Source: a virus. From it: DNA of 64,000 nt. Below, piece by piece: positions 5,139 to 62,453 of the stretch; position 1 is the stretch's first letter; the number at the start of each line of letters is the position of its first letter. The DNA is taken from IMG/VR virus record IMGVR_UViG_3300025598_000021, one strand, 5' to 3'. The position numbers were made by a program, and so were the translations under genes. Below the pieces are notes generated by a model. That model was not told the DNA's origin. It searched no databases and worked only from the letters and a program-made list of their open reading frames with translations.

Positions 5139-5155
5139 ATAGGAGTGATTATATT

Positions 5156-5773: not shown

Positions 5774-8700
5774 ATGGCAGGTAATACAGTATTTCAGCTC
5801 AAGCGCTCTAGCGTCGCAGGCAAGAAGCCTACAACATCAACGCTAAACACCGGCGAGCTCGCGTTAAACTTAACTGACCGCAAGCTGTATTCATCTGATG
5901 GCACGAACATCTTTGAGACCGGCGCGAATCTAACTACCCTAGTAGTCTCCACAAACACGACAGTCAACAACGTCATCTTTGGCACCGGCGGCATATACGC
6001 CAACGGTTCGTTCGGTGGCTCAGGTGCGACCCTGTTCTCTAACGGCTCTTCGGTGTACTGGGGAACTGGCGCAGGCACTGGTACTGTCACACAAGTAAAC
6101 AGCGGCAACGGCCTGTTCGGCGGTCCTGTCACGACAGTCGGTACGATATACGTACTAGCGAATACCGGTATCATATCTAATACGTCCGGCGTGTTCGTAG
6201 ATCCGGTGTACATCAACACGATCACCACGCCTCCTGGATCTAACACTCAGATCGTGTTCAACGACTCAGGCAAGTCTAACGCTCTAGCGTCGTTCACGTT
6301 CAACAAGACCACAAATACTCTATTCGTATCTAACACGATAAACACAATAACTGTCGTAGCGAATACTATCAACGCTAACGGCGGCGTCGGTACTCTCGGC
6401 CAGGTACTGACGTCTAACGGCACGAGCTCGTTCTGGAGCAGTCTAAACACATCCACGCCCGTCAGACAGCAGTACACAGGCGATGGGTCTACTACGTTAT
6501 TCTTTGTTACAGGCGGTTACACGCCTGGCACTCTATCAGTATACGTCAACGGCGTACTCTCGAGAAACACTACAGAAGTAACCGCGACAAACGGCAGCTC
6601 TATAACTTTTGCGACACCGCCGAACAACGGCGCGCTGATCGACGTCATAGGATACGTAAACAACCTCCCATACTCGAACTTCGGTCCGAGCATACTAGTA
6701 TCACAACAGTACACCGCGAACGGTACGGCTAACAGCTTCGCTATAACCGGCGGATACATTCCTGGCGGTGTTCAAGTATATCTAAACGGCGTCAAACAGA
6801 TACCGTTCGTTGACGTCGATATATCTTCTGGTGCCAACGTAAACTTCTATGTCACACCGTCTAACACATGGGCGATTGACGTATTTGGGTTTCAGTCTCA
6901 AATCATATCGGCATCTTCTGTTCCTGATCCGCTGGTGGCCAACAACCTCTATATCGGTGGTAACGTAACTGTAACTAAGAGCTCGTTTACTTTTGGCAAC
7001 AGCACAGTAAACACGAATATCAACACGAGCGGCATAACGTTTGGCAACAGCGTAGCCAACACGAGCATCAACTCCAACGGCGTCAATCTAAGTAACACAG
7101 TACTCTACATCGGTAACTCTTCAGTAAACGTCGTAATCAACTCATCTTCGGTTTATGTCAACGGCGGACCACTCAGCGGCACCAACACCAATGCCCAGTA
7201 CGTCTGGTCTAACGCTCATACGTTCAACGCGAACGTAAATATTAATGGCAACGTGACCATTAGTACATCTGCCGGCATATCGGCTAATGGTTCATATGGT
7301 ACTGCTGGTCAGGCGCTCCTGTCTAACGGCTCTACAGTATACTGGGGTGCCGCTGGGGTTAACACTTCCGCGCAGTACACTTGGACTAATACACAATCAT
7401 TTAGCGCTAATGTCGTACTAAACGGTAATGTCGTTATAAGCAATACTATATACGCTAACGGCTCGGCCGGTGTTGCTGGACAGATACTGGTATCCAATGG
7501 CGCTGGAGTATACTGGTCTAACGCCGCTACTACCATCAGACAGTCTTTTACAGGTAATGGTTCAGCGACGAACTTTGCGATCACCGGCGGCTATACGCCG
7601 TTGAATCTAGACGTGTACGTTAACGGCGTCAAGCAAGAGAGTGTAGTAGACGTAAACTTAAGCTCTGGCGCTAACATAGTATTCACCGTCGCTCCTCCAA
7701 ACGGGGCATACATTGACGTCGTAGGTCTATCGCCGACTACATACACCTATGCTAACACGTCTGCGCAGTATAGCTGGACTAACACTCAGACGTTCTCTAA
7801 CCTAGTTATGATATCGACTGCAGGTATATCTGCGAACGGCTCGTATGGCACGAACGGCCAGGTACTGACGTCTAACGGCAGCTCTGTATACTGGAGCAAC
7901 AGCTCAGTGTTTGTCAGACAGACATTCACCGGTACAGGTTCTGCAACAACGTTCACGGTCACCGGCGGTTATACGCCAAACAACCTAGACGTCTATCTTA
8001 ACGGCGTGAGACAGAGCAACCCGACCGACGTCAACACCGGTTCAGGATCGATCATAGTATTCTCTACACCGCCTATTAATGGTTCTACCATTGACGTAGT
8101 AGGCGTCGTGCCCCTAAACTATACTATAACTAATACCTCTGCGCAGTACACTTGGACTAACACACACTCATTCACCAACGCCATTACGGCCAACGTCATT
8201 AACGCTAATAATATTACATCATCTAATGGTCTATACTCTATCGGTCCATTTAATGGGAGTTATTCAGATGGTATAGTCACAGACTATGTTACAGGTAATG
8301 GCAGAATAAGCGTTGGTCCATTAGATAACTTAACTTTCTATACCGGAGGCGTCGCTGCAAATCAGACGATGATTATTAATGCGACTGGTGTGTTCGTTAA
8401 TGGTACGATAAACTCATATTCTACTACATCATCTAATGGTCTATACTCTATCGGTCCATTTAATGGAAGTTATTCAGATGGTACAGTAATAGACTATGTG
8501 ACAGGTAATGGACGTATATCTGTAGGTCCAGGAGATGGTTTAAGTATATATAATGCTGGTGTCGGAGCAAATGCAATGGTCACGATACTTGCTAATGGAA
8601 ATATGGGTATAGCCTGCACCTCTCCGACTGGATTATTAGACGTATCTTCACGTGGTATCACCAAAGGTTCGATGCCAGCTGGTTCTATTATTCAAGTAGT

Positions 8701-9106
8701 AAACGTTCCATTTACGAATGTTGTTTCTACAACTTCTGCAACTGCAACTAATGTACCAAATTTTGCAGTATCAATAACGCCAAGTTTAGTATCTAGTAAA
8801 ATTCTTTTAATAATAAATTGTCAAATTGGTATGTCTACTGCGGGTGACGCCTACTGTCGCGTACTACGCAATGGAACACTTATTGACTCTAGCACTTCCG
8901 GTTCGTTTGGACATACTGCAGGCCAATATAATTTATCAACTAGTGATGCAAGTATTTGTTTTTTAGATAGTCCGGCAACAACTTCTTCTGTGACTTATCA
9001 AGTTCAATTTTGGACTGGGGCTGGAACAGTTTACGTAAATGGTAGAGGATATGCAGGAGATCAAACTACTAGCAGTGATATCACAGTCATGGAGTTAGCT
9101 CAATGA
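5774..9106 (+). CDS. long tail fibre protein with internal repeats
   Basis: FQLKRSSVAGKKPT...GELALNLTDRKLY anchor; four repeats of RQxxTGxGxxTxFxxTGGYxPxxLxVYxNGV; C-terminal GSIIQVV...ITVMELA tip domain. Confidence 0.8.
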   Translation: MAGNTVFQLKRSSVAGKKPTTSTLNTGELALNLTDRKLYSSDGTNIFETGANLTTLVVSTNTTVNNVIFGTGGIYANGSFGGSGATLFSNGSSVYWGTGAGTGTVTQVNSGNGLFGGPVTTVGTIYVLANTGIISNTSGVFVDPVYINTITTPPGSNTQIVFNDSGKSNALASFTFNKTTNTLFVSNTINTITVVANTINANGGVGTLGQVLTSNGTSSFWSSLNTSTPVRQQYTGDGSTTLFFVTGGYTPGTLSVYVNGVLSRNTTEVTATNGSSITFATPPNNGALIDVIGYVNNLPYSNFGPSILVSQQYTANGTANSFAITGGYIPGGVQVYLNGVKQIPFVDVDISSGANVNFYVTPSNTWAIDVFGFQSQIISASSVPDPLVANNLYIGGNVTVTKSSFTFGNSTVNTNINTSGITFGNSVANTSINSNGVNLSNTVLYIGNSSVNVVINSSSVYVNGGPLSGTNTNAQYVWSNAHTFNANVNINGNVTISTSAGISANGSYGTAGQALLSNGSTVYWGAAGVNTSAQYTWTNTQSFSANVVLNGNVVISNTIYANGSAGVAGQILVSNGAGVYWSNAATTIRQSFTGNGSATNFAITGGYTPLNLDVYVNGVKQESVVDVNLSSGANIVFTVAPPNGAYIDVVGLSPTTYTYANTSAQYSWTNTQTFSNLVMISTAGISANGSYGTNGQVLTSNGSSVYWSNSSVFVRQTFTGTGSATTFTVTGGYTPNNLDVYLNGVRQSNPTDVNTGSGSIIVFSTPPINGSTIDVVGVVPLNYTITNTSAQYTWTNTHSFTNAITANVINANNITSSNGLYSIGPFNGSYSDGIVTDYVTGNGRISVGPLDNLTFYTGGVAANQTMIINATGVFVNGTINSYSTTSSNGLYSIGPFNGSYSDGTVIDYVTGNGRISVGPGDGLSIYNAGVGANAMVTILANGNMGIACTSPTGLLDVSSRGITKGSMPAGSIIQVVNVPFTNVVSTTSATATNVPNFAVSITPSLVSSKILLIINCQIGMSTAGDAYCRVLRNGTLIDSSTSGSFGHTAGQYNLSTSDASICFLDSPATTSSVTYQVQFWTGAGTVYVNGRGYAGDQTTSSDITVMELAQ
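8215..8511 (+). repeat. near-identical intragenic direct repeat, 210 nt period
   Basis: tacatcatctaatggtctatactctatcggtccatttaatgg(g/a)agttattcagatggta at 8215 and 8425. Confidence 0.9.
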
Positions 9107-9414
9107 TTCATGACGCAGTTAAAATAGTTCATCCTAATGCTGTAACTATATCTACAGGTAATGATATTATAGAAGCGTGGGATGAATCTGGTAAATTAAT
9201 CAATATTGATAAAAATAAAATAGATATCGAGATCGATCGTCTAAAGCAGGAGTACTTAAAGAGCGAGTACCAGAGATCTAGAAAGACAGAGTATCCGTCT
9301 ATAGAAGACCAGCTCGACATGCTCTGGCACGCGATAGACGAGGGTAAGCTGGACAAGAATTCAGAATTCTATACGTCTATCAAGACAGTTAAAAATAAAT
9401 ATAAGAAACCATAA
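9103..9414 (+). CDS. tail fibre assembly chaperone-like protein
   Basis: YQRSRKTEYPSIEDQLDMLWH...IKTVKNKYKKP motif typical of small genes following fibre tips. Confidence 0.65.
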   Translation: MIHDAVKIVHPNAVTISTGNDIIEAWDESGKLINIDKNKIDIEIDRLKQEYLKSEYQRSRKTEYPSIEDQLDMLWHAIDEGKLDKNSEFYTSIKTVKNKYKKP

Positions 9415-49842: not shown

Positions 49843-50912
49843 TGAAGATAGCGCTAATAACGGACTCGCACGCTGGTGTCAGAAATGACTCTCTAGCGTT
49901 TCATGACTACATGAAAAAGTTCTATGACAACATATTTTTTAAATATCTCAGTGAACACAGTATACGCACCGTGGTCCATTGCGGCGACATCATCGATCGT
50001 CGTAAGTATATCAACATCAACACGGCGTATCGTCTACGCAGAGATCTTATCGAGCCGGCACTAAATCAAGGAATCGAGTGGCACCAGATCATCGGTAACC
50101 ACGATACATATCATAAGAACACCAACGAGGTGAGTTCTTTTACTGAACTTTTTGGTTCATACGAGAACTATACAACCCTAAATATATATGATACCACAAC
50201 AGAAGTCATGTTCGGTGACACTAAGATACTGTTGATTCCTTGGATTTGTGATGACAATAAAGAACATTCCTTCGATCTAATAAGGAACACAGATGCGCAA
50301 ATCGCGTTCGGTCACTTGGAACTCCAAGGCTTTGAGATGTTCAAGGGCTCAATTGTCTCACACGGATATGACCCAGAATCTTTTGGACGGTTTGATATTG
50401 TTTGCTCTGGGCATTATCATCATCGCTCAAACCGTGGCAATATTTACTATCTCGGTTCTCCTGCAGAGTATACTTGGTCTGATTACAATGATCCTAGAGG
50501 GTTTCATATATTTGACACAGAGACGAGACAGCTAGAGTTCATTGAAAATCCATACAAGATGTTCAAGAAGGTATGGTATAACGACGGGAGCGAAGAGTTC
50601 CTAGAGAGTGAGATGGACTATTCTCAGTTTGAGAACAGTATGGTCAAGGTGATCGTCCAAGAGAAGAACAATCCTTACTGGTTCGATAAGTTTATTGAGA
50701 ACATTGAGAAGCAGAACCCAGTAGACCTGCAGGTCGTAGAAGATCATCTCAACTTAGGTCTAGAAGAAGATCAAGACATCATCGACGAAGCTGAGTCTAC
50801 GCTTGATATATTTAAGAAGTATATTGGAACTGCCGAAATAAAAGGCGTGAATAAAGTAAAGTTAGAGAATAAGATAACTGAATTGTATCATGAGGCTTTG
50901 ACTATAGAATGA
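49842..50912 (+). CDS. gp47: recombination endonuclease subunit gp47 (Mre11/SbcD-like)
   Basis: DSH, GD..DRRK, GNHD, GHLE, SGHYH metallophosphoesterase motifs. Confidence 0.95.
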   Translation: MKIALITDSHAGVRNDSLAFHDYMKKFYDNIFFKYLSEHSIRTVVHCGDIIDRRKYININTAYRLRRDLIEPALNQGIEWHQIIGNHDTYHKNTNEVSSFTELFGSYENYTTLNIYDTTTEVMFGDTKILLIPWICDDNKEHSFDLIRNTDAQIAFGHLELQGFEMFKGSIVSHGYDPESFGRFDIVCSGHYHHRSNRGNIYYLGSPAEYTWSDYNDPRGFHIFDTETRQLEFIENPYKMFKKVWYNDGSEEFLESEMDYSQFENSMVKVIVQEKNNPYWFDKFIENIEKQNPVDLQVVEDHLNLGLEEDQDIIDEAESTLDIFKKYIGTAEIKGVNKVKLENKITELYHEALTIE

Positions 50913-52615
50913 TATACTTTAAAAAGATTAGATGGAAGAACTTACTCTCTACTGGTAATGTCTTCACCGAGATAGACCTGTGCGGAAGAGACACAACACT
51001 TATTGTCGGTACTAACGGTGCCGGTAAGTCTACTCTATTAGACGCTCTATCTTTTGGTCTGTTTGGTAAACCATTTCGTAAGATCAACAAGCCACAACTT
51101 GTTAACTCTATCACAGAAAAGAACTGTGTCGTAGAGTTAGAGTTCTCTATTGGTTCGAACCAGTACAAGATCATCCGTGGTATTAAACCAAATATCTTTG
51201 AAGTATATCAGAATGATAATCTTCTCAATCAGTCTGCTGAGGTGAAAGACTATCAAGAGATACTTGAAAAGCAGATTCTAAAAGTAAATCATAAGACATT
51301 TAATCAGGTAGTCATACTAGGATCAGCTACATTTCAGCCGTTCATGCAGCTTCCCGGTGGTCAGCGCAGAGACGTAATTGAAGATCTTCTAGACCTTCAG
51401 ATATTCACGACGATGAATTCACTCCTTAAAGATAAGATACTCTTTAATAATGAGAATATAAATTCTGTTGTATCTGAAAAGAAATTAATCGAGTCTAAAA
51501 TCGAGATGACTAAAGAACATCTCAAAGAACTACAGACAAACAACGATAAACTTATAGAAGAGAAGCAGGAACTCTTAAAAGATACGTTTAATCAGTTAGC
51601 AGAGTTGAACGCAAAACACGTATTAATAGAAGAGGATATTGAAAAGCTTCAATCACAGATCGAAGATAACGACAGCATCTCTAAGAAGATAAGCAAGTTG
51701 TCTAAGCTCCGTCATCAGATCGAGGCGAAGGCGTCACTGTTGAATGACGACGTTAAGTTCTTTCACGATCATAAGAACTGTCCTACCTGCAAGCAGGACA
51801 TCGAAGAAGATTTTCGTGAGAACACTATCGCTAGCAAGATGATAGAGATCAGAGAGATAGATAATGGTCTAGAGCTCCTATCTAAAGAATATGAGGCCGC
51901 TAACGATAGACTAAAAGAGATAATGGAGATTAATAGTAAAATACAGTCTTTTCAGATGGAAAAGATCGAACTTAATACTAATATAAACTCTATGACTCGC
52001 TACTGCAAGCAGCTACAGAAAGATATCAGAGACATACATGAGAAGCATACTGCTGAAAAAGATATAAAGATTGTCGACTTTGAAAACACTCTTAAAGAGA
52101 TAGAAGACAAGTACAACGAGCTGTCTGAGGAGAAGAATGTTTTAGCCGTAGCTAGTTCTATGCTCAAAGATGGTGGTATTAAGGCTAAGATCATCAAACA
52201 GTATATTCCTGTGATAAATAAGCTCATCAATAAATATCTATCATCTATGGACTTCTTTGTATCATTTGAATTAAATGAAGAGTTTAATGAGAGTATTAAG
52301 TCCAGACATAGAGATGATTTTACGTATGCTTCCTTCTCTGAAGGAGAAAAACAAAAGATAGATCTTGCACTACTGTTTACGTGGAGAGCAGTCGCTAAAC
52401 TTAGAAACTCTATCAATACAAACTTATTAATCATGGATGAAGTATTTGACTCATCTCTAGATCAGAACGCGACAGACTATCTAATGAACATCATTAGAGA
52501 TATATCTAAAGACAGTAACATCTTTATTATATCTCACAAAGAACATATGAACGAAAAGTTCACTAACGTATTAAGATTTCAGAAACATAAGAATTTCTCG
52601 CAATTACAGGAGTAA
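50909..52615 (+). CDS. gp46: recombination endonuclease subunit gp46 (Rad50/SbcC-like)
   Basis: GTNGAGKST, CPTC zinc hook, FSEGEK, LIMDEVFD, ISH. Confidence 0.96.
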   Translation: MIYFKKIRWKNLLSTGNVFTEIDLCGRDTTLIVGTNGAGKSTLLDALSFGLFGKPFRKINKPQLVNSITEKNCVVELEFSIGSNQYKIIRGIKPNIFEVYQNDNLLNQSAEVKDYQEILEKQILKVNHKTFNQVVILGSATFQPFMQLPGGQRRDVIEDLLDLQIFTTMNSLLKDKILFNNENINSVVSEKKLIESKIEMTKEHLKELQTNNDKLIEEKQELLKDTFNQLAELNAKHVLIEEDIEKLQSQIEDNDSISKKISKLSKLRHQIEAKASLLNDDVKFFHDHKNCPTCKQDIEEDFRENTIASKMIEIREIDNGLELLSKEYEAANDRLKEIMEINSKIQSFQMEKIELNTNINSMTRYCKQLQKDIRDIHEKHTAEKDIKIVDFENTLKEIEDKYNELSEEKNVLAVASSMLKDGGIKAKIIKQYIPVINKLINKYLSSMDFFVSFELNEEFNESIKSRHRDDFTYASFSEGEKQKIDLALLFTWRAVAKLRNSINTNLLIMDEVFDSSLDQNATDYLMNIIRDISKDSNIFIISHKEHMNEKFTNVLRFQKHKNFSQLQE

Positions 52616-53162: not shown

Positions 53163-53633
53163 ATGGAACTTAGTGATGTATACTTGAATAAAAAATGTGA
53201 AGAGTTCGACTTTAAAGAGCCGCCGTTCGATCCAATTGAGTTTGCTAAAGAGCTGATGGCGTTCATGTATGAAAAGAATGGTCTTGGTCTCGCTGCAAAT
53301 CAGGTAGGAGTTCCATATCGAATATTTGCCATGCGTGGCGCTCCTGAAAACTTCGTGTGCTTCAATCCTAAGATAGTGACGCACTCAAAAGATGATATCG
53401 TGCTAGAAGAGGGTTGTCTTAGCTATCCAGGATTACTCGTTAAAGTCAAGAGACCATCGATGATTCGTGTGAGATTCACTACACCTAACAGTGACACTAT
53501 CACGAGACAGTTTATTGGAATGTCTGCACGCGTATTTCAACACGAATACGACCACCTAGATGGTATTAAATTTATAGATCGTGCTAATAAATTCCATAGA
53601 GATCAGGCTATGCGAAAATGGAAAAGAAAATAA
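53163..53633 (+). CDS. def: peptide deformylase
   Basis: GLGLAANQVG, EGCLS, QHEYDHLDG. Confidence 0.95.
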   Translation: MELSDVYLNKKCEEFDFKEPPFDPIEFAKELMAFMYEKNGLGLAANQVGVPYRIFAMRGAPENFVCFNPKIVTHSKDDIVLEEGCLSYPGLLVKVKRPSMIRVRFTTPNSDTITRQFIGMSARVFQHEYDHLDGIKFIDRANKFHRDQAMRKWKRK

Positions 53634-54061
53634 TCGTTCCAGCAAGGATCGCAGATACGGTCCTTTTAAAGAATATCGACGACGTTAGCTTCAATAAAGA
53701 GTTCCATGAAGACATATCTTACTATGAAGATTGTTTTAAAAATGGATACGACTGCTATCTGCTCATGGTAGACAGTCTACCCGCAGGAGAGCTCATTCTT
53801 AGATTCGACGAAGAAGATACTCTAGGTCTTGAGTCTTTTGCTATAGTCCCTCAGTATCGCGGTAGAGGTTATAGTAAGTTCTTATTAGACTTCGTGGATG
53901 CGTATGCCAAACAAAATTTTAAGAGAATCGTGCTAGAAGTTTCCACAGATAATAAGAAAGCTATTGACATTTACAAGAAACAAGGTTATAATATAAGTCA
54001 TACTATTATGGACTTCTATAAGTTTGGAATGAACGCTTATGTTATGGAGAAAATTCTGTGA
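53618..54061 (+). CDS. GNAT family acetyltransferase (RimI-like)
   Basis: IVPQYRGRGYSK acetyl-CoA motif; LEV...N.KAI..Y.K.GY. Confidence 0.85.
   Translation: MEKKIIVPARIADTVLLKNIDDVSFNKEFHEDISYYEDCFKNGYDCYLLMVDSLPAGELILRFDEEDTLGLESFAIVPQYRGRGYSKFLLDFVDAYAKQNFKRIVLEVSTDNKKAIDIYKKQGYNISHTIMDFYKFGMNAYVMEKIL
53964..53992 (+). promoter_or_regulatory. perfect sigma70-type promoter inside the GNAT gene
   Basis: TTGACA-17-TATAAT. Confidence 0.75.
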
Positions 54062-54183
54062 AGTACTTTCCCTTTAATCAGCTAGAAGATAAACTTCAGT
54101 ACGTAGATGACTGGATCAATCTAATTCTAATTGTGTCTATTACTTATGTTTTAGTAAAGAAATTCTTAGAATGGGATAATTGA
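54058..54183 (+). CDS. 41-aa small membrane protein (GTG start; not in ORF track)
   Basis: MKYFPFNQLEDKLQYVDDWINLILIVSITYVLVKKFLEWDN*; GGAG RBS 8 nt upstream; overlaps both neighbours by 4 nt. Confidence 0.55.
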   Translation: MKYFPFNQLEDKLQYVDDWINLILIVSITYVLVKKFLEWDN

Positions 54184-54722
54184 TGAATATATTTTATCTT
54201 AGTGAGAATCCTTTAGAAGCTGCGCAGTGGATGGTTGACAAACATGTTGTCAAGATGATCCTAGAGTCTGCGCAGCTTTTGTCTACCGCTCATCGCATAC
54301 TCGACGGTGATGAGCAAGTAGAACTATCTGAGACTGGAAGAAAAAAGAAAAGGTATAAACTCTATGACGCACGTGAACCAGTTATGTACTCAGCTACGCA
54401 CATTAATCACCCGAGTGCTGTATGGTGCAGGAGCAGCGTTGAAAATTATAATTGGCTTGTAGACCATTTCTTCGCACTCATGCAGGAATATACTTATCGC
54501 TATGACAAAGAGCATAAGTGTTATGGCGAACTGAGCTATCAGCTATCGTCTCCACCAAAGAATCTAGATAAATTTGATATGACTCCGATGCCGTCGTGTA
54601 TGGATGACAAGTATATTATATCTGCTAATCCTATCGATAACTATAGAAACTACTACAAGAACGGCAAGACGCATCTACATAAATGGAAAAGACGTGAGGC
54701 TCCTGCGTGGATTATCAACTAA
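54180..54722 (+). CDS. pyrimidine-dimer DNA glycosylase (DenV)-like conserved phage protein
   Basis: MNIFYL...DKHVVKMILESAQLLSTAH...TH.NHPSAVW...NY.WL...YR.YY. Confidence 0.65.
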   Translation: MMNIFYLSENPLEAAQWMVDKHVVKMILESAQLLSTAHRILDGDEQVELSETGRKKKRYKLYDAREPVMYSATHINHPSAVWCRSSVENYNWLVDHFFALMQEYTYRYDKEHKCYGELSYQLSSPPKNLDKFDMTPMPSCMDDKYIISANPIDNYRNYYKNGKTHLHKWKRREAPAWIIN

Positions 54723-55288
54723 AAGAAACTACAGTACTAGATAATATCATTCCAAAAGATCTACAAGATAAGTTTCATGATCTAGTCATGTCACAGTCTT
54801 TTAAGTTCTTAAAGGACATGTCTTATGCAGACGGCGATATTAAGTACCCGTCTTATGGTTTTAATTTGTTGTTTAAACACCCACAACATGGTATAATGTC
54901 TCCACTATATGAGACTGTCTGTGTTCCTATAGTAAACGCTCTTCTAGAAGAACTAGTTCTTAAAGTAAACGATATCTACTATACTAGAGCGTTTCTTCAG
55001 GTACCGCTCGCAGATAACTTCTACAAGGGACAAAACGGGGCCCACATAGATATTCCAGATCCGCACTACGCTTGTGTCTATTATATGAATGACTCAGATG
55101 GCGATACTATTATCTATGAACAGAATATACACGACACTCCACCAGGATCAAAACATATCGATCTAGTAGAACATAAGAGAGTAACCCCTAAGAAGGGAAG
55201 AATAGCAATATTTGATGGAGCAAGATATCACTGCTCTAGTCAGCCGAGAGAAAATTATCGTTGTATTATTAACTTTGTTCTTGTATGA
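54707..55288 (+). CDS. 2OG-Fe(II) oxygenase
   Basis: HID...YY.NDSDG.T...PKKGR..IFDG..YH.S..P....R..INF. Confidence 0.85.
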   Translation: MDYQLKETTVLDNIIPKDLQDKFHDLVMSQSFKFLKDMSYADGDIKYPSYGFNLLFKHPQHGIMSPLYETVCVPIVNALLEELVLKVNDIYYTRAFLQVPLADNFYKGQNGAHIDIPDPHYACVYYMNDSDGDTIIYEQNIHDTPPGSKHIDLVEHKRVTPKKGRIAIFDGARYHCSSQPRENYRCIINFVLV

Positions 55289-55500
55289 AAGGATTAAAGA
55301 TGGATGATAAGTTAGATGAAATTGCAAGACTGATGGCTCCAATCGATGAGCAGATTACTCTGTGTGAGAGCGGCAGTGAACAGATCATGCTTGCGTGTGG
55401 AATGATGCAGAGAGTAAAAGAGATATTGAACCACCACCTTGGAGTAGAAGGCGCGGCTAATATCTTAAAGGAATATGTTAACACTACAACTCTACAGTGA
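55285..55500 (+). CDS. hypothetical protein
   Basis: Coupled ORF, helical. Confidence 0.5.
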   Translation: MKGLKMDDKLDEIARLMAPIDEQITLCESGSEQIMLACGMMQRVKEILNHHLGVEGAANILKEYVNTTTLQ

Positions 55501-55912
55501 GGTTATAATGAGTGCTAATTGGGTAGACGACATTTATAAGATGCACCTACACTATAAGGTACATCCAGTGATTAATGTTATGGACAAAGAGAAACTAGCA
55601 AAATTTCTAGAGTTTCGCGCTAACTTTCTACAAGAAGAGTTGAATGAGCTTAAAGAAGCCAAGTCTGCGGAAGACGTAGTAGACGCGCTTATCGATCTAT
55701 GCGTAGTGGCTATCGGCACGCTAGACGGATTTGGAGTAAACTCTTATAAAGCGTGGGACGAGGTTCTTAAGGCTAATATGAATAAGACTCCTGGAGTAAA
55801 GCCTTCACGACCTAACCCGCTTGGACTTCCAGATCTTATTAAGCCAGAGGGCTGGGTTGGACCTTCGCACGAAGGTAATCACGGACTTGTGAGTAAAATC
55901 TTCGAGGACTGA
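55475..55912 (+). CDS. all-alpha NTP pyrophosphohydrolase (MazG/PRA-PH-like; candidate dCTPase/dUTPase; probable start 55508)
   Basis: EEL.EL...DALID..V...G...AWDEV..ANM.K...DLIKPEGW. Confidence 0.8.
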   Translation: MLTLQLYSEVIMSANWVDDIYKMHLHYKVHPVINVMDKEKLAKFLEFRANFLQEELNELKEAKSAEDVVDALIDLCVVAIGTLDGFGVNSYKAWDEVLKANMNKTPGVKPSRPNPLGLPDLIKPEGWVGPSHEGNHGLVSKIFED

Positions 55913-55913
55913 G

Positions 55914-56357
55914 ATGACCGATATTCGTTATGAAATGGGTAATATAGGTGAGCTTGCAGTAGAAGAACACTTTGATTCACAGAGAACAGACGATTGGTAT
56001 GACTCTCGTAAGGATGGAATGATCAACAATATGTCCTACGAGGTCAAGACCTTTCGTCTAAATGGAAAGACTAAAGGATTTTGGATTGATAAGTCTCAAT
56101 GGAAGAAAGTAGATGGAGTAGACATTCTTATCTTTGTGAGAGTACCTGAGACTACCGATGAAAGAGCTAGAATATACGTATGTATAAATCATAAAAACTG
56201 TTGGCAAAAAGCTTATAGAAACGATGGAACCGGAGTAAGATCTTATCCATTGACAAATTGCATATATATTGGTACAATAGGTGAAGAAAGATCATTACAA
56301 CTATATGAGCATTCTGTAAAGATCTCTAAACATAAGAGGTTAATCAATGCCGCATGA
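55914..56357 (+). CDS. hypothetical protein, possible PD-(D/E)XK fold
   Basis: G.IGE...DG......YEVKT pattern. Confidence 0.4.
   Translation: MTDIRYEMGNIGELAVEEHFDSQRTDDWYDSRKDGMINNMSYEVKTFRLNGKTKGFWIDKSQWKKVDGVDILIFVRVPETTDERARIYVCINHKNCWQKAYRNDGTGVRSYPLTNCIYIGTIGEERSLQLYEHSVKISKHKRLINAA
56250..56278 (+). promoter_or_regulatory. sigma70-type promoter upstream of the DNA modification genes
   Basis: TTGACA-17-TACAAT. Confidence 0.7.
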
Positions 56358-56754
56358 ACGTTACTCAGTCCAAGTTCTACAAGAGTGCATAGACCTCCAG
56401 AACAAGAAGTCTAACGACTATCAGAACCCAAACTCTACTATTAAGCAGGCTGACTATTATCCAAATGGTTGTCAGACTATCTTGGATACTATCCAAGCTA
56501 AAGTTCTTCGCATGCGTTCTGTTATGGAAGCTATGCAGTATGATAAGAACTATAAACCAAACTTCGAATCACTTGAAGATTCAGCTAAAGATCTTATCAA
56601 CTACGCTTCTTTCTTTGTGACGTTCTCGCGTGGTAAGATGGAAGGTCAAGATCCTAATCGCGACTTTCTTAATAAACAAAAACAAGTAGTGTCATACACC
56701 AGCCATACTATCACGGTAACAGCTAGTAATGAGGTAGAAGATGCAGGTTGCTAG
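56347..56754 (+). CDS. nucleotide-modification-associated (DUF1599/Nmad1-like) protein
   Basis: KKSNDY...K..R..S...ESLEDS..DLINYA.F. Confidence 0.65.
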   Translation: MPHERYSVQVLQECIDLQNKKSNDYQNPNSTIKQADYYPNGCQTILDTIQAKVLRMRSVMEAMQYDKNYKPNFESLEDSAKDLINYASFFVTFSRGKMEGQDPNRDFLNKQKQVVSYTSHTITVTASNEVEDAGC

Positions 56755-57391
56755 AGTCCAAGACATCAGAGAGTACTTCTACGATCAGTTAAAGAAACAA
56801 AACTTTGTAACTGATAAGACTGGTGTTAAGACTATCGAACTCATTGGCGCTAACTTCATTGCCAATGAGCCTACTATCTTTGGAGAAGTAAACGAAGATT
56901 ATATCCGTAAAGAATTGGCTTGGTATAAGTCGATGTCTCTAAACGTTAATGATCTAGAAGACACGCCTGCTATATGGAAGAAAGTAGCAGACGAAGATGG
57001 TTATATCAACTCAAACTACGGCTGGTGTATCTGGTCGCACGATAATCACTATCAATATCATAACGCGTTGAATGAGCTTAATAAGAATCCAGACTCACGC
57101 CGCGCTATCATGATCTATACAAGACCATCGATGTGGCACGACTATGACTATCACGGCATGTCAGATTTTATGTGTACTAACACCGTGCAGTATTTGATCC
57201 GTGATAATAGACTTAACGCTGTAGTTCAGATGAGATCTAACGACGTAGTCTATGGCTATCGCAATGACTACGCTTGGCAGGACTACGTATTAGACAAGAT
57301 GGCAAATGAGTTAAAAGTTGCTCGCGGCGATATTTATTGGAATGTAGGATCTCTTCATGTCTATGAAAGACACTTCGACTTGGTCATCTAA
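56741..57391 (+). CDS. gp42: dCMP hydroxymethylase
   Basis: Near-identical motifs to T4 gp42 as I recall it: DKTGVKTIE, INSNYGW.IWS, NPDSRR.IMIYTRPSM, GMSDFMCTNTVQYLIRD, MRSNDVV.G.RNDYAWQ (cytosine-specifying Asp), WNVGSLHVY.RHF. Confidence 0.93.
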   Translation: MQVARVQDIREYFYDQLKKQNFVTDKTGVKTIELIGANFIANEPTIFGEVNEDYIRKELAWYKSMSLNVNDLEDTPAIWKKVADEDGYINSNYGWCIWSHDNHYQYHNALNELNKNPDSRRAIMIYTRPSMWHDYDYHGMSDFMCTNTVQYLIRDNRLNAVVQMRSNDVVYGYRNDYAWQDYVLDKMANELKVARGDIYWNVGSLHVYERHFDLVI

Positions 57392-57833
57392 GTATTTAAA
57401 TCTAGCAAAACACGTAGCGACTTGGTCTAAAGATCCATCCACTAAAATCGGCGCTGTAGCTGTAGGAGAACGCGGCCAGATACTAAGTACTGGCTATAAT
57501 GGTTTTCCTAGAAATATTGAAGACAGACCGGACAGGCTAAACGATAGAGAGTCAAAGTATAAGTACGTAGTTCACGGTGAGATGAACTGCATATATAATG
57601 CGACACTCAATGGTGTGAGTTTAAATGAAGCAGACTTATACGTGTATGGATTGCCTATATGCTCTGAGTGCGCTAAGGGTGTAATACAGGTCGGCATCAA
57701 GCGCGCTTTCATGTGCTATCCTGAGAATACAAGAGACAAGTGGAAAGACTCTTATAAGATTACTTCTGAGATGTTTAATGAAGTCGGAATATATCATGAG
57801 GTCGTGTATGAGAGCGATAGTGGTAGGAATTAA
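57357..57833 (+). CDS. cd: dCMP deaminase
   Basis: SKDPSTKIGAV, GYNGFP, HGE.N, P.CSEC zinc motifs. Confidence 0.9.
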   Translation: MSMKDTSTWSSKYLNLAKHVATWSKDPSTKIGAVAVGERGQILSTGYNGFPRNIEDRPDRLNDRESKYKYVVHGEMNCIYNATLNGVSLNEADLYVYGLPICSECAKGVIQVGIKRAFMCYPENTRDKWKDSYKITSEMFNEVGIYHEVVYESDSGRN

Positions 57834-58170
57834 TCCTTCTAATCATAAGACTGTCGATAAGCACTGTATTACCATAAAGCGTCTATTCAAATGGATGGAC
57901 GACTTGAATATCAAGTATTTCTCGTTCGTAAACTGTATACCAAGTCCAGGAAGATATAATAAATCTGACATCGACTACGATATGATAGACGTCTGCACGA
58001 GAGACTATAAAGTAGTACTGGCGCTTGGTAACTTTCCATCTGAAGCTTTAAACAAAATTAACGTAAAGCACTTTAAATTGCCACATCCTTCTGGGCTAAA
58101 TAGACAATTAAATGACGTCAAATATGAATTAGACATGTTGAGACAGTGCAGGAACTATATCTATGGCTAA
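57778..58170 (+). CDS. uracil-DNA-glycosylase-superfamily small protein (probable start 57808)
   Basis: VVGINPS, LALG, LPHPSGLN motifs. Confidence 0.7.
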   Translation: MKSEYIMRSCMRAIVVGINPSNHKTVDKHCITIKRLFKWMDDLNIKYFSFVNCIPSPGRYNKSDIDYDMIDVCTRDYKVVLALGNFPSEALNKINVKHFKLPHPSGLNRQLNDVKYELDMLRQCRNYIYG

Positions 58171-59257
58171 AAAGATTTTAATAACTGGTTTTAATAAAGA
58201 GCAGTGCACACGCGACTACTTTCTTACCAAAGAACTTAGAATTTTAAACTCACACTACTCTCTAATTCGATGTCTAGAAGACATGGGATTCGAGGTAGAG
58301 CAGCGACCTGTAGACATCGGCGAAGACCTATCCGGATACGATCGCGTAATCATATATCTACATTCTATACAGTCGTTCTGCCAATTCTTGTATGACGGTC
58401 TATACGCTATTAAGGCTCGTCCGGACGCGATTCTAGCGTTTGATGACTGGCAGGTAGATCAGGTCATGGCGTGTTTTCCACAGTTTAAGCGTAACTTACT
58501 CGACGAAGAGAAGTATAATCCATTTAGACAATATCTACTAGATCTCTATTATGGATCTTCAGACGAAGCCACTATTCGCGCTCACAAGCAAGACTATCTA
58601 GAAAGTATAGAGCAGGTACTATCTTATCAAAACAAGTTGATGATCTGTGCCTACTCAGGCGGTGACCTAAGCAAGTTTAAACTCGGATGGTCAAGCGACA
58701 AGTTGTTCAGCTTTAATCCTAACCCCTACAATCTTAATCGTGGACCGCATAACAACTTTGGCGAAGAATCTACAGGTCTAAACGCTTTCTTTGAGGAGGA
58801 CACTCCTAAAGAGAAGATCAGGGCTTGGGTGTTCTCATCGCTGAATCACAAGAAAAACGATGCAGTTGTTAAGAAGAATAATTTTACGTGGGACGTCGCC
58901 ATGTATGGTCCACGACGTGGTGAATATAAAGCGCAGCGTCTAAAAGAACCTGATATGTGCAGAGAGTATGTAAAGCACTGGGGTTGTCTATTACCAAAAT
59001 ACTATCACGCCGGCTCAGGATGGTGGCGATCTAGAGTACAGCAGGTGGCAGACGCCGGCTCTATTCTACTATGTGACGACGTTGAAGGCGTAATCTATGG
59101 CGACGCGTATGTCGGTCTAAACATTGCAGATATAGAAAGCATGGACAACACGCAGCTAGAAAAGCTGGCTAAATATCAGCACGACTGTTTGTATGATAAT
59201 CATCCGCTAGACAAGAAAGTGCAGCGCGATGAATTGACTAAGATCTTGGAGATTTAA
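58163..59257 (+). CDS. DNA glycosyltransferase, remote T4 beta-glucosyltransferase (GT-B)-like
   Basis: Recalled alignment to T4 BGT: EDMGFEV/SEMGLNV, DLSGYDRVII/DVNDYDRLIV, RVQQVADAGSILLCD/RVWETMASDAVMLID, QHDCL/QHDIL; similar length; next to gp42. Confidence 0.65.
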   Translation: MAKKILITGFNKEQCTRDYFLTKELRILNSHYSLIRCLEDMGFEVEQRPVDIGEDLSGYDRVIIYLHSIQSFCQFLYDGLYAIKARPDAILAFDDWQVDQVMACFPQFKRNLLDEEKYNPFRQYLLDLYYGSSDEATIRAHKQDYLESIEQVLSYQNKLMICAYSGGDLSKFKLGWSSDKLFSFNPNPYNLNRGPHNNFGEESTGLNAFFEEDTPKEKIRAWVFSSLNHKKNDAVVKKNNFTWDVAMYGPRRGEYKAQRLKEPDMCREYVKHWGCLLPKYYHAGSGWWRSRVQQVADAGSILLCDDVEGVIYGDAYVGLNIADIESMDNTQLEKLAKYQHDCLYDNHPLDKKVQRDELTKILEI

Positions 59258-60457
59258 ATGAAGCACGCCGCAATCATTCCACTCATCGGTGGAGAAGCGC
59301 TAGCATCAGCGGCCGTATTTGGTAGTAGACCAGACTATATTTTAAGTTATACGCCATTTAAAAATCACGATGCGCACCTGCTTAATTATTGGGACCACGA
59401 AGTTCCATACTATCTACTAGACGAAGGTGGAAGGCATCCTCATAAAGTAGACGTCGTGTCTAGCGTGTGTCCGTGCGCCGGCCTGTCAATGTTGTCTACC
59501 GGCTATGGCGAACACAATCCAAATAATAAATGGATGTTAGAATCTGCAGAATACGTATTAGGTGAGATGCAGCCTAAAGTATTCTGGGGTGAGAACGCTC
59601 CTGCGCTCGCTGGAAAGATCGGAGAACCTATTAGAAACCAACTAATTGATATTGGTAATAAACACGGTTATACGATGACTCTCTATCGCACTAAGAGTCT
59701 TCTACACGGCGTGCCACAAGTTAGAGAGCGAACGTTCTACTTCTTCTGGAAAGGTGATAAGACACCAATTCTTAACTACTACAACGTTCCATACGATAAG
59801 ATCGAAGACGTAATATTGAGAATCAAAGCTAATTCTCAGATGGAACCTATCAATAAGAATAAGCCGAGCGAAGACCCGTATTATAAGTATCTCCTAGAAG
59901 TAGTCTATGGTGGTATCACTCATCGCGAACATTTTGATAAAATCGATCCTAATAACATATCCGTGAGAAGCTATGATTCGAAAAGTCTTATCGAAACTTT
60001 TGGCCATGATTATAGGCAAGTCGGCGCGTGGATGGAAGCAAATGGATATGAAAGAGAAGTCAGTAAGTGTGATCGTATGTTTAACAAGCTCGCATCGGGT
60101 AAAAACATCATGCGTCGCGGTACTATCGTACCGAAAGAATACATCGGTGCTTTTGTCGGTCACTACCCTACCATGCTTACGCACCCGCACGAAGACAGAT
60201 ACATAACATACAGAGAGGCGATGTCTATCATGGGTCTGCCTGAAGACTTTGAACTTCTAGACCCAAAGAAAAACTACAACCATATCTGTCAAAACGTTCC
60301 ATTTCGCACTGCAGTAGACATGGCTAAAGAAGTCAAGGCAGTACTAGAAGGTGAGAGAGAATTTGTTGACAATCGCTTAGTTTATCAGTATAATAGTAAT
60401 AGGAAACACGTGTTAGCTGATAAAAGACAGAACAGTCTAGCTGAATTTTTTAATTGA
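59258..60457 (+). CDS. C5 cytosine methyltransferase-fold protein with atypical SAM-binding motifs
   Basis: PCAGLS (motif IV), GEN (VI), PQ.RER (VIII), R..T.RE...MG.P.DF (IX); motif I reads IPLIGG. Confidence 0.8.
   Translation: MKHAAIIPLIGGEALASAAVFGSRPDYILSYTPFKNHDAHLLNYWDHEVPYYLLDEGGRHPHKVDVVSSVCPCAGLSMLSTGYGEHNPNNKWMLESAEYVLGEMQPKVFWGENAPALAGKIGEPIRNQLIDIGNKHGYTMTLYRTKSLLHGVPQVRERTFYFFWKGDKTPILNYYNVPYDKIEDVILRIKANSQMEPINKNKPSEDPYYKYLLEVVYGGITHREHFDKIDPNNISVRSYDSKSLIETFGHDYRQVGAWMEANGYEREVSKCDRMFNKLASGKNIMRRGTIVPKEYIGAFVGHYPTMLTHPHEDRYITYREAMSIMGLPEDFELLDPKKNYNHICQNVPFRTAVDMAKEVKAVLEGEREFVDNRLVYQYNSNRKHVLADKRQNSLAEFFN
60366..60394 (+). promoter_or_regulatory. perfect sigma70-type promoter in the 3' end of the MTase gene
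   Basis: TTGACA-17-TATAAT. Confidence 0.75.
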
Positions 60458-60464
60458 TGGAGGA

Positions 60465-60884
60465 GTGATGAGCGTCTTTAAGAATAACCCTACTATGGTA
60501 AACGGCGGAGGAACCATGATTGGATCTATAACCGCCGATGATTTATACAAGTTCGAGAACGGCAAGACATATCATGCTAGCGTTAGTTCTTCGGCTTCAG
60601 TACCAAATATCCAGTATAAATACAACGAAGGTCGTATCATTGACGACTTTCGCGCCTATATCGATAAGACATATGGGCAGCACTATATGACCGAAGACCA
60701 AAATATAGAATGTTTTGACGTGTGGCTAGCTCTCGGCGATTCAATGCCTACCTTCAGAAACACAGCTATTAAGTATCTCTGGCGCTATGGAAAGAAAAAT
60801 GGCACCAATAGAGACGACTTGATGAAAGTATTGCATTATACTCTAATGATGTTGTATGTAGACCATTACAAGAAAGGTGAATAA
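60465..60884 (+). CDS. DUF3310/SaV-like conserved phage protein
   Basis: KYNE......YID.TY..HY...KY.WRYGKK.G.N..DL.K..HY. Confidence 0.7.
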   Translation: MMSVFKNNPTMVNGGGTMIGSITADDLYKFENGKTYHASVSSSASVPNIQYKYNEGRIIDDFRAYIDKTYGQHYMTEDQNIECFDVWLALGDSMPTFRNTAIKYLWRYGKKNGTNRDDLMKVLHYTLMMLYVDHYKKGE

Positions 60885-60887
60885 AAT

Positions 60888-61745
60888 ATGGAAATTCAGA
60901 TCCCAGTTGAAAAGTTGCGCGAACGAGGTCTCTTTGTAGCAACTCCAATGTATGGCGGACAGTGCGCCGGTATGTTTGCACGATCCGTTGCAGATCTATC
61001 TGCTCTATGTACAAAGTATGGTATTCCTCTACAGTTCTACTTCCTGTTTAATGAGTCATTGATCACGCGCGCTAGAAACTATTGCTGCGATGAATTCATG
61101 CGCTCACAGACGCAGCACATGATGTTTATTGACTCCGACATCGGCTTTAATCCACAAGACGTTATCGCTCTTATGGCGCTGCAGGCCAATGATGAAGATA
61201 AGTATGATATCATCGGCGGTCCATATCCTAAGAAGTGTATCTCTTGGGAAAAGATCAAGCACGCTGTCGATAAGGGTGTCGCTGACGAAGATCCTAACGT
61301 ACTTGAGAAGTTCGTTGGTGACTACGTCTTTAATCCTAAGGGCGATCAGCAGAGTATCCCACTCAGCGAGCCAGTCGAGGTTCTCGAGATCGGAACGGGC
61401 TTCATGATGGTCACTAAGAAAGCCATGCAGAAGTTCTACGACAGCTACAAGGACCAGTACTCATACAAGCCAGATCACGTTCGCACAGAGCACTTCGACG
61501 GCTCACGTGAGATTCTAATGTTCTTCCAGGCTGAAGTAGATCCAGCGTCTAAGCGCTATCTCTCAGAAGACTATTGGTTCTGTCAGAAAGCTCAGCAGAT
61601 CGGTCTTAAGACTTGGTTCTGTCCGTGGATGGTTCTACAACACGTTGGTACGTATATCTTCGGCGGTTCACTTGCTGATATTGCTTCTGTCGGTGCAGCT
61701 GCAACCGCTGATCCATCAAAAATTGGTGGTAAAAAGAAGAAGTAA
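60888..61745 (+). CDS. GT-A-fold glycosyltransferase-like protein
   Basis: VATPMYGG, ESLITRARN, FIDSDIGF (DxD), GTGFM, LSEDY.FC, L.HVG. Confidence 0.75.
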   Translation: MEIQIPVEKLRERGLFVATPMYGGQCAGMFARSVADLSALCTKYGIPLQFYFLFNESLITRARNYCCDEFMRSQTQHMMFIDSDIGFNPQDVIALMALQANDEDKYDIIGGPYPKKCISWEKIKHAVDKGVADEDPNVLEKFVGDYVFNPKGDQQSIPLSEPVEVLEIGTGFMMVTKKAMQKFYDSYKDQYSYKPDHVRTEHFDGSREILMFFQAEVDPASKRYLSEDYWFCQKAQQIGLKTWFCPWMVLQHVGTYIFGGSLADIASVGAAATADPSKIGGKKKK

Positions 61746-61762
61746 GTGAAAGGAACTATATA

Positions 61763-62419
61763 ATGCAGATAAGTGTTAATACAATAAACGTATTAAAGAA
61801 TTTCTCATCTATCAATCCTTCAATTATCATCAACGAAGGTAACGTTATTGAGACTATCTCTAATATGAAGACAGTCAAGGCAAAGGCGAAGGTCGATACG
61901 ACCTTCCCACGCCGCTTTGCGATGTATAACCTCAATAAGCTGATCTCTATTCTCAGCCTATATGACAACGCAGACGTGCGATTTGAAGATAACAATCTAG
62001 TTATCTCAGACGGTGATAATAAGATCACCAACTTGACATACTCTGACGAGTCTACTATCATCAAACCACCAAAGACGATCAATCTACCAAGCGTAGATGT
62101 TTCAGTGTCTGTGACCAATGAAAATATCAAGGACGTCGAGAAGGCTCTTGGAGTCCTATCAGTTCGTAATATTATAATCTCAGGTGATGGTGAGTTCGTA
62201 TATCTCCAGGCCGCTGACGGTGGTAACCCATCTGGCGATGTTTATTCCATCAAGCTTGGTATGTCAGAAAAGAAGTTCAAGGCCGTGTTTAAGGCTGAGA
62301 ACATTAAAGTACTTCCTGGTAACTACACGATTGAAATTAGTTCTAAAGGAATTTCAAGGTTCTACAACGACGACGTCGAATACTTCATCGCCGTTGAGTC
62401 TGAGCTTTCGAAATTCTAA
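61763..62419 (+). CDS. gp45: DNA polymerase sliding clamp gp45
   Basis: T..VLKNFSSINPSI; F..Y.LN; EN.K.LPGNY...IS.KGIS.F; Y.IA.E. Confidence 0.92.
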   Translation: MQISVNTINVLKNFSSINPSIIINEGNVIETISNMKTVKAKAKVDTTFPRRFAMYNLNKLISILSLYDNADVRFEDNNLVISDGDNKITNLTYSDESTIIKPPKTINLPSVDVSVSVTNENIKDVEKALGVLSVRNIIISGDGEFVYLQAADGGNPSGDVYSIKLGMSEKKFKAVFKAENIKVLPGNYTIEISSKGISRFYNDDVEYFIAVESELSKF

Positions 62420-62425
62420 CTTGAA

Positions 62426-62453
62426 GGGGGACCCAGTGTCCCCCACTTTTTTT
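62426..62453 (+). terminator. Rho-independent terminator after gp45
   Basis: gggggac-ccagt-gtccccc-ac-ttttttt. Confidence 0.8.

Follow-up and report, generated by a model that had tools for sequence, protein, structure and literature searches.

The locus examined here, positions 55475-61745 of a 64,000-nucleotide stretch of DNA (the window) from IMG/VR virus record IMGVR_UViG_3300025598_000021, raises the question of which modified cytosine its phage makes, and with which set of enzymes. The source is an uncultured freshwater T4-like phage, represented by a 125.5-kb linear record with a CheckV completeness of about 74%, in which the T4-like replication genes gp43, uvsX, gp41, gp61, gp55, gp47, gp46, gp45, gp44, gp62 and regA can be recognized. 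Ten tightly packed open reading frames (ORFs), all on the + strand and either overlapping or separated by a few bases, fill 55475-61745 between gp46 and gp45. An earlier note had described a contiguous cluster of the 5-hydroxymethylcytosine (hmC) type here, and all of the components that it named were found in place on the + strand, though it had listed nine where the ORF list gives ten genes. The best explanation of the whole, and one that we consider reasonably probable from the gene content, is that the block is a cytosine-replacement and DNA-glycosylation module of a T4-like phage, lodged between gp46 and gp45 and with hexosyl-hmC DNA as its most likely product.

The gene on which this explanation turns is the T4 gp42-type dCMP hydroxymethylase gene at 56741-57391 (+ strand; PF00303, 76.7 bits). 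Its product scores 300 bits by phmmer against T4 gp42 (PDB 1b49/1b5e) and about 58 bits against E. coli ThyA, and is about 62% identical to the T4 enzyme by tblastn. It has the thymidylate-synthase (TS) fold with the catalytic Cys, and the active-site strings around this residue (MSDFMCTNT, with T4 Cys148) and around T4 Asp179 (MRSNDVV.G.RNDYAWQ) are identical in the two phages. Asp is found at the positions equivalent to ThyA 143 (S-D-F-M-C), 169 (M-R-S-N-D-V-V) and 177 (RNDYAWQ); in the phmmer alignment, the entry for the D179N mutant (6l18) differs from the window enzyme precisely at Asp179. Exchange of ThyA Asn177 for Asp (T4 Asp179) confers specificity for dCMP, and the gp42 relatives in RB69 and DLP3 are 5-hydroxy-dCMP (5hodCMP) synthases, with ThyA-D169N as the diagnostic change (PMC13326640). 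Since the window enzyme keeps Asp at 169 as well as at 143 and 177, its predicted product is 5-hydroxymethyl-dCMP (hm-dCMP) and not 5-hydroxy-dCMP; homology and active-site residues place the TS homolog among the T4-type dCMP hydroxymethylases, and it is neither a 5hodCMP synthase nor a dUMP enzyme. The earlier note's gp42 assignment, and with it the idea of a cluster for pre-replicative modification and glycosylation of cytosine built around a true gp42, is thus borne out by homology and by these diagnostic residues.

Two further genes fit the nucleotide side of such a pathway. The first ORF of the block, 55475-55912 (+ strand), encodes a MazG-type all-alpha NTP pyrophosphohydrolase (PF01503, 34.6 bits against a cut-off of 21.3; phrog_671, 1.8e-17); its true start may lie at 55508, because its relatives are about 11 residues shorter. 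A dCMP deaminase of the T4 cd type is encoded at 57357-57833 (+ strand; PF00383, 61.8 bits; phrog_174, 1e-37). The phage also has a ThyX (135 bits), located outside the window at genome position C1:23554-24129, and no ThyA-type td; a tblastn search with T4 gp42 found the hydroxymethylase as the only gene of the ThyA fold in the record. Because the phage encodes ThyX, the deaminase needs only an ordinary role in dUMP supply.

The arrangement is widely shared. When IMG/VR was scanned with the protein of C5-cytosine-methyltransferase (C5-MTase) fold encoded toward the end of the block, designated mtl here, 370 contigs matched, and the best 80 of these 370 (51-96% identity) were examined for gene order. 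Almost all of the 80 show the same succession: MazG, a 147-aa protein (in some), Nmad1, gp42, the deaminase, a small protein resembling uracil-DNA glycosylase (UDG; again in some), a variable segment of 1.1-5 kb, the MTase-like gene, DUF3310, a GT-A glycosyltransferase (GT), gp45, gp44 and gp62. Well over 100 contigs of IMG/VR retain this order, the most distant of them at about 51% identity, so that chance juxtaposition can be set aside. The earlier note had named conservation of the neighborhood as a check, and on this count it stands; its description of the enzyme combination as unusual does not hold for this lineage, both because hundreds of uncultured T4-like phages have the same architecture and because, in a recent metavirome preprint (bioRxiv 10.1101/2023.12.21.572611), GT-A and GT-B genes beside ThyS, deaminase, methyltransferase and clamp genes are already catalogued.

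The glycosylation half of the proposal rests above all on the 364-aa GT-B protein encoded at 58163-59257 (+ strand; phrog_14998), which matches no Pfam or NCBIfam family. Its AlphaFold2 (AF2) model, made with 42 homologs, has a predicted local distance difference test score (pLDDT) of 90.6, and T4 beta-glucosyltransferase (BGT) ranks first for it among PDB structures (Foldseek E 3.5e-7; VIA-align Z 18.4). Residues 3-364 of the model superpose on BGT 1-351 over both domains, with a root-mean-square deviation of 3.7 A over 299 residues; the invariant D94-D95-W96-Q97 is a candidate only for the counterpart of the catalytic Asp100 of BGT. All of the 414 homologs are unnamed. Members of the family are encoded by cultured T4-like phages of Aeromonas too, and Aeromonas phage 25 has both a homolog and a gp42 (59% identity). 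The predicted fold, the position of the gene in a slot that in relatives is taken by an alpha-glucosyltransferase (AGT) homolog or by sugar-nucleotide enzymes, and the gp42-positive Aeromonas phage 25 together make this protein a probable hmC-DNA glycosyltransferase. No sugar-nucleotide gene lies beside it here, so a nucleoside diphosphate (NDP)-hexose of the host is its likely donor.

The slot in question is the variable segment between the deaminase/UDG-like genes and mtl, a hypervariable site for modification genes. The largest cluster of slot ORFs in the relatives (35 members) is homologous to T4 AGT (PF11440, 257 bits), and the BGT-fold family fills the slot here and in a small number of other phages. 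Other relatives have in it an NAD-epimerase/dehydratase, a UDP-glucose dehydrogenase, an NTP-transferase with an APH kinase, a GT1-like enzyme, an inositol-1-phosphate synthase or a protein resembling 5-hydroxymethyl-deoxyuridine (5-hmdU) DNA kinase. Examples are an inositol-1-phosphate-synthase-like gene and a protein with the 5-hmdU-DNA-kinase helical domain (L060:1172-2365 and L060:3459-4739), an NTP-transferase + APH-kinase fusion (L062:1071-2669) and a pair of epimerase and UDP-glucose-dehydrogenase genes (L053:4088-5985). Such genes suggest that hmC in those lineages bears decorations that are phosphorylated or are not hexoses. In a clade without the MTase-like gene, the slot at L105:9977-14045 contains four genes with no recognizable GT family, one of which weakly matches a PLP-enzyme family (PALP; E 1.5e-4), and its product may be an adduct of hmC other than a sugar; slots of this type are also found alongside the MTase-like gene (L010-L027). 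The swapping of slot contents is probably driven by modification-dependent restriction.

A second glycosyltransferase, of 285 aa and with a GT-A fold, is encoded at 60888-61745 (+ strand; phrog_1574), directly 5' of gp45. The earlier note had called it a GT-A protein, and this is upheld by the AF2 model (pLDDT 80.5), for which all of the top PDB matches are GT-A enzymes, those heading the Foldseek list being STIV A197, LH3, Mimivirus R699 and GalNAc-T2; a profile search against PDB returned nothing. Its invariant residues, R61, D82-x-D84 (D82-S-D84 in the window protein) and E227-D228-Y229, correspond to the R...DxD...EDY/F set of the published phage GT-A DNA glycosyltransferases and of the trypanosome JGT, so that both the GT-A fold and the motifs of this group are present. 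Homologs lie in the same gp46-gp45 interval of Stenotrophomonas phage DLP6 (68% identity), Caulobacter phage Cr30 (57%) and Sinorhizobium phage phiM12 (44%). In Cr30 and phiM12 they adjoin the sliding-clamp gene (6001-6849 of L169 and 6001-6978 of L170, respectively).

The block also contains mtl itself (59258-60457, + strand), which has the C5-MTase fold, cofactor motifs that have been rebuilt and, at its C-terminus, a peptide of the clamp-binding type. It scores 68 bits against PF00145 (cut-off 22) and 36.2 against the NCBIfam dcm model TIGR00675 (cut-off 100.65). In 34 diverse homologs the catalytic motifs are invariant, namely CPCAGLS (IV), GENAP (VI), Q-x-R-x-R in the form PQVRER (VIII) and motif IX. 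The motifs that mark S-adenosylmethionine (SAM) binding in C5-MTases (I, II and X) depart from the canonical form: motif I is an invariant PLIGG and has one residue fewer than F-x-G-x-G-G; in motif II, an invariant Tyr31 is followed by a variable residue where the Glu would stand; and motif X is an invariant CQNVP where G-N-x-V is canonical. Its first 50-60 residues were left unaligned by Pfam, by PDB profiles and by hhalign against a canonical phage MTase.

The C-terminus of mtl, NSLAEFFN, resembles the STLEDFFG of this phage's own gp43, and fits the (S/T)-L-x-x-F-(F/L) pattern that gp45 clients carry at their extreme C-terminus. In T4, the gp45-binding peptides SLDFLFG of gp43 and SLDFLY of gp55 lie at or almost at the C-terminal end. 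A strict form of the pattern picks out just two of the 311 ORFs of the genome, gp43 and mtl; a loose form is found in 32 of 34 members of the mtl family as against 5 of the 311 ORFs. The probable docking partner of the tail is gp45, and DNA at the fork or behind it is very probably where mtl acts. Taken with the intact catalytic motifs, the evidence supports a view of mtl as a clamp-tethered enzyme that would form a Cys-C6 intermediate on cytosines in nascent DNA. Homologs with 31-33% identity occur in cyanophage S-TIM5 and Pseudoalteromonas phage XG4, again near TS homologs of the dCMP type; in XG4 a gp42 (52% identity) is encoded about 5 kb from the mtl homolog. In S-TIM5 (L001) the annotated ThyA (4766-5602) has Asp177 and Cys143, and lies 2.4 kb from the mtl homolog (7986-9203; 33% identity); S-TIM5 may therefore carry a modified cytosine. 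No described function for a family like that of mtl was found in the literature searched.

As to what mtl does on DNA, we lean toward the idea that it "patches" cytosines that have escaped replacement, adding a methyl or another one-carbon group to them, though we would put this a little short of an even call. That it carries out non-methyl chemistry on C or hmC strikes us as unlikely, if worth pursuing. Equally unlikely is the fuller picture in which mtl is a new cytosine-C5 enzyme riding gp45, with a cofactor other than SAM or none at all, and serves as a post-replicative proofreader or editor of the hypermodified genome, either hydroxymethylating or otherwise capping escaped cytosines or turning hmC into an undescribed adduct.

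A number of observations weigh against the module as a whole or against a special role for mtl in it. In the record, tblastn found no counterpart of T4 gp1, gp56, Dam, AGT or BGT, no Thymidylate_kin protein was found either, and the MazG-type protein has no pairwise similarity to gp56 by BLASTP; with about 74% of the genome at hand, the absence of the gp1-type kinase and the gp56-type dCTPase proves nothing. The GT-B protein shows no sequence similarity to T4 BGT (PF09198, GT63) or AGT (BLASTP E 0.45; hhalign probability 2.9%), and generic GT-B enzymes and T4 AGT reach Z values of about 16, only some 2 below that of BGT; the label "BGT-like" that the earlier note gave it is thus apt for the fold and not for the sequence. 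The GT-A gene is present in phages without a hydroxymethylase, DLP6 having no TS homolog and Cr30 and phiM12 a canonical ThyA (Leu143, Asn177), though TET was not searched for in any of the three. The GT-A protein is therefore no evidence for an extra step on hmC, its candidacy as an hmC-specific second sugar transferase is weakened, and the earlier note's use of a second GT as a pointer to a different modification is left with little weight; by its distribution, the GT-A gene is a backbone gene of the gp46-gp45 interval that is not tied to hmC phages. The roles suggested for the UDG-like, nuclease-like and MazG-type proteins rest on weak or generic similarity. Finally, mtl retains two features of the cofactor site, GG in motif I and Asp55 at the motif III position, so that ordinary use of SAM is possible, and it is missing from 24 of the 51 gp42-anchored loci that have enough flank to judge.

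This last count means that mtl is not required for the pathway, and it rules out mtl as an obligatory core member. The extra MTase-fold protein to which the earlier note had drawn attention is confirmed, with altered cofactor motifs, though part of the clade evidently dispenses with it. On a gp42 tree the mtl-minus state is concentrated in one clade, with a minimum of 4 changes as against 19.7 with shuffled labels; the tree came from a quick search, and the first 80 loci were chosen for having mtl. Our reading of it is that the common ancestor of the clade already had mtl and that two or more losses followed.

The alternative that survives best is that mtl is an ordinary SAM-dependent orphan cytosine-C5 methyltransferase, in which case the genome would contain hmC or hexosyl-hmC together with 5-methylcytosine (5mC) at leftover or specific cytosines, and no new chemistry would be involved. 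It agrees with the score above the Pfam C5-MTase threshold, with the intact motifs IV, VI, VIII and IX, with the retained GG and Asp of motifs I and III, with the fact that orphan MTases are common phage accessory genes, and with the dispensability of mtl in one clade. It does not readily account for the family-invariant replacement of the motif I Phe and first Gly, the motif II Glu and the motif X Asn, for the 50 N-terminal residues that align with neither Pfam, PDB nor a canonical phage MTase, or for a score so far under the NCBIfam dcm cut-off; and some phage C5-MTase-like proteins with disrupted motifs, though of a different family, have no methylase activity in E. coli (PMC8256090). We consider this alternative possible but do not favor it.

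Less likely still, to a marked degree, is that mtl turns hmC or sugar-hmC into an undescribed C5 adduct by way of the Cys-C6 intermediate, so that the virion base would not be plain hexosyl-hmC; this is the undescribed modification that the earlier note had suggested. In vitro, C5-MTases deprived of SAM are able to substitute the 5-hydroxymethyl group or to exchange it, which lends this idea some chemical footing, and it would make sense of residues for cytosine activation that are retained while the cofactor motifs have been rebuilt, of the linkage of mtl to dCMP-type TS homologs across 31-96% identity, and of its place directly 3' of the modification slot. Against it, no donor-making enzyme is encoded beside mtl in the window, and about half of the close gp42-bearing relatives are without mtl while keeping the rest of the cluster. 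A modification other than hexosyl-hmC in the window phage is accordingly to be regarded as possible, with hexosyl-hmC as the favored product.

That the genes are neighbors only by way of the T4-like early/replication region, with no single pathway among them, is very improbable: the GT-A, MazG, peptide deformylase and DenV-like genes are indeed backbone genes that are also found in phages without gp42, but Nmad1, gp42, the deaminase, the UDG-like gene, the GT slot and mtl keep their fixed order across the contigs while the flanks vary, and the slot is occupied throughout by sugar or DNA-modification enzymes. A TS homolog that makes 5-hydroxy-dCMP, as in RB69 and DLP3, or hm-dUMP, with the GTs decorating that base, can be dismissed as barely credible, since the closeness of proven 5hodCMP synthases to gp42 (PMC13326640) and the adjoining deaminase and UDG-like genes are outweighed by the missing D169N, the dCMP-specific Asp177 and the identity of the active-site strings with those of T4 gp42. 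We reject the 5-hydroxycytosine pathway for its missing D169N signature and, on account of Asp at 177, thymidine (5-hydroxymethyluracil, hmU) hypermodification, for which no aGPT-Pplase or HMUDK is encoded in the window either. A post-replicative route by methyltransferase and TET through the 2-oxoglutarate (2OG) oxygenase at 54707-55288 was also considered and rejected, the protein being phrog_274/P4H-like; a Tet_JBP search gave nothing, though as control genomes gave no match either, this is weak evidence.

Four small proteins of the block remain to be described. The 147-aa protein at 55914-56357 (+ strand) has no Pfam, PHROG or NCBIfam match. A D..E-x-K motif can be read in it: D34...V44-K45-T46 is invariant in nine homologs, with the residue before the Val being Glu in six and Ala in three. 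In the Atlas, the named clusters closest to it are PDDEXK_16 and PDDEXK_14; it is probably a PD-(D/E)xK nuclease, to judge from the motif and these neighbors, and its gene is found in only some relatives. The Nmad1/DUF1599-like protein at 56347-56754 (+ strand) is matched by PF07659 in 20 of 24 family members (best E 6e-7), while the window protein itself reaches E 0.051 and 14.4 bits (cut-off 25); a profile search against PDB gave nothing useful. Its gene always lies immediately 5' of the hydroxymethylase gene. The Nmad-like protein of the earlier note is recovered in this ORF, the preceding 55914-56357 being separate and PD-(D/E)xK-like. MazG matches the N-terminal half of phrog_18404 and Nmad1 the C-terminal half, so the two appear to be fused as one protein in other phages; in the window the 147-aa nuclease-like gene stands between them.

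The 130-aa UDG-superfamily-like protein at 57778-58170 (+ strand) scores 20.4 bits (E 6e-4) against Pfam UDG (PF03167), below the cut-off of 24.3, and its profile finds only 3ikb in PDB, a weak match (E 0.02). G-x-N-P-S (G-I-N-P-S in the window) and H-P-S-(G/P)-x-N-R are kept in 19 homologs. In the Mug/TDG glycosylases (family 2), motif A is G-I-N-P-(G/S), with Asn replacing the Asp of family 1, and motif B is a loop of the P-S-G-L type; the two conserved motifs of the window protein resemble these, though unlike the Mug/TDG enzymes it is only 130 aa long, sub-threshold in Pfam and without a significant PDB sequence match. The UDG-like call of the earlier note is thus weak by score and leans mainly on the two family-conserved motifs. 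The DUF3310-domain protein at 60465-60884 (+ strand; PF11753, 23.5 bits against a cut-off of 24; phrog_480, 4e-25) is encoded by a constant partner 5' of the GT-A gene. Alignment by hhalign with the T7 gp1.7 kinase has a probability of 90% but covers only gp1.7 residues 123-184; as the shared part is just a 60-residue domain, the reading as a gp1.7-like kinase was rejected, and a nucleotide-binding or kinase role for the protein is speculative.

The block is bounded on the left by the gene for gp46, the SbcC-like recombination nuclease subunit (50909-52615, + strand; SMC_N and AAA_23 matches), whose position as an anchor is syntenic with T4, DLP6, Cr30 and phiM12, and on the right by the gp45 sliding-clamp gene (61763-62419, + strand; PF09116, 40.5 bits). 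The genes that precede the block (53163-54061, 54180-55288) encode a peptide deformylase, a GNAT acetyltransferase, a DenV-like/phrog_624 protein and the P4H-like 2OG-Fe(II) oxygenase (phrog_274); the deformylase and DenV-like genes are kept in many relatives. No convincing terminator was found within 55475-61745. The sole strong intrinsic-terminator-like hairpin of the region (62426-62444; 7 bp, 6 of them GC, with a T-run) lies 3' of gp45, so the whole modification block and gp45 may be co-transcribed. Sigma70 consensus promoters occur inside coding sequences at 60366-60394 (12/12; within the 3'-terminal part of the MTase-like gene and some 70 nt ahead of the DUF3310 gene), 56250-56278 (11/12; in the 3' end of the 147-aa gene, ahead of Nmad1/gp42) and 62033-62061 (11/12), and look like T4-style early promoters that would split the block into parts.

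The pathway that we propose would run as follows. Before replication, the gp42-type enzyme would convert dCMP to 5-hydroxymethyl-dCMP, as its homology and diagnostic residues indicate; the MazG-type pyrophosphohydrolase would probably clear dCTP, as T4 gp56 does; and the deaminase would feed dUMP to the phage ThyX for dTMP, as the gene content suggests. After replication, the BGT-fold GT-B protein would use a host NDP-sugar as donor and place its hexose on the hmC of the DNA, and the GT-A protein may add a further sugar, or, as a backbone gene, may serve another acceptor. The clamp-tailed mtl would dock on gp45 by its C-terminal SLxEFF peptide and attack C6 of flipped-out cytosines in the new DNA, with three options from there: transfer of the SAM methyl onto leftover cytosines, use of another one-carbon donor, or action on hmC itself. 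The Mug-like UDG-fold protein would probably act as a glycosylase that excises U or hmU arising in the hmC genome, and the PD-(D/E)xK-like protein would probably attack unmodified (host) DNA.

Glycosylated hmC is a textbook phage counter-defence, and the cluster shows how an hmC pathway is built outside the T-even phages, from a conserved hydroxymethylase core and a swappable slot for GT and sugar-nucleotide genes. The BGT-fold family, with more than 400 unnamed proteins, would gain an annotation from it. The MTase-fold enzyme is widespread, on about 370 IMG/VR contigs; should it prove to perform non-methyl chemistry on DNA, it would represent a new modification activity and a candidate tool enzyme.

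Among known systems, the closest is the T-even one for glucosyl-hmC (gp42, gp56, gp1, cd, alpha-GT and beta-GT). The two share the gp42-type hydroxymethylase, the cd-type deaminase, an all-alpha NTP-pyrophosphohydrolase, a GT that resembles T4 BGT more closely than any other solved structure, and the replication-gene region from gp46 to gp45-44-62. They differ in that the window GT resembles neither BGT nor AGT in sequence; that all of the window genes lie in one block; that gp56, gp1, Dam and AGT were not found in the 74%-complete record; and that the window adds Nmad1, the UDG-like and PD-(D/E)xK-like proteins, the clamp-tailed MTase-fold enzyme and DUF3310.

The RB69/DLP3 pathway for arabinosyl-5-hydroxycytosine (PMC13326640) likewise joins a TS homolog to DNA glycosyltransferases in Straboviridae-like phages, while the window lacks both D169N and NDP-arabinose genes and its predicted product is hmC, not 5-hydroxycytosine (5hoC). 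The C5-MTase partners of TET/5mYOX enzymes (PMC8256090), especially those of clades III-VI, resemble mtl in being phage-specific C5-MTase-fold proteins beside hypermodification genes, some of which, with the catalytic Cys in place and the motifs altered, showed no activity as methyltransferases in E. coli. The window differs from them in that Tet_JBP finds no match (the controls being silent too), that the adjacent 2OG oxygenase is phrog_274, that motifs VIII and IX are intact while I, II and X are altered, and that hmC is supplied before replication.

The ThyS-associated GT clusters of the metavirome study (bioRxiv 10.1101/2023.12.21.572611) offer a parallel in architecture: T4-BGT-like GT-B proteins (Foldseek E 1e-5 to 1e-7), GT-A proteins with the R...DxD...EDY motifs, neighbors that include ThyS, dCMP deaminase, methyltransferase and gp45/clamp genes, and diverse slots with epimerase, APH and second GT genes. 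In that study, GTs linked to methyltransferase and TET were tested and those linked to ThyS only counted; in the part of it available, no methyltransferase role in the ThyS context and no clamp tail or rebuilt motifs are described. The assignment of the BGT-fold family, the slot architecture of this lineage and the clamp-tailed, motif-rebuilt MTase-fold family were not found in the literature searched. The pathway as predicted here is a variant of the T-even glucosyl-hmC system, and falls within the ThyS-associated GT clusters counted in the metavirome study.

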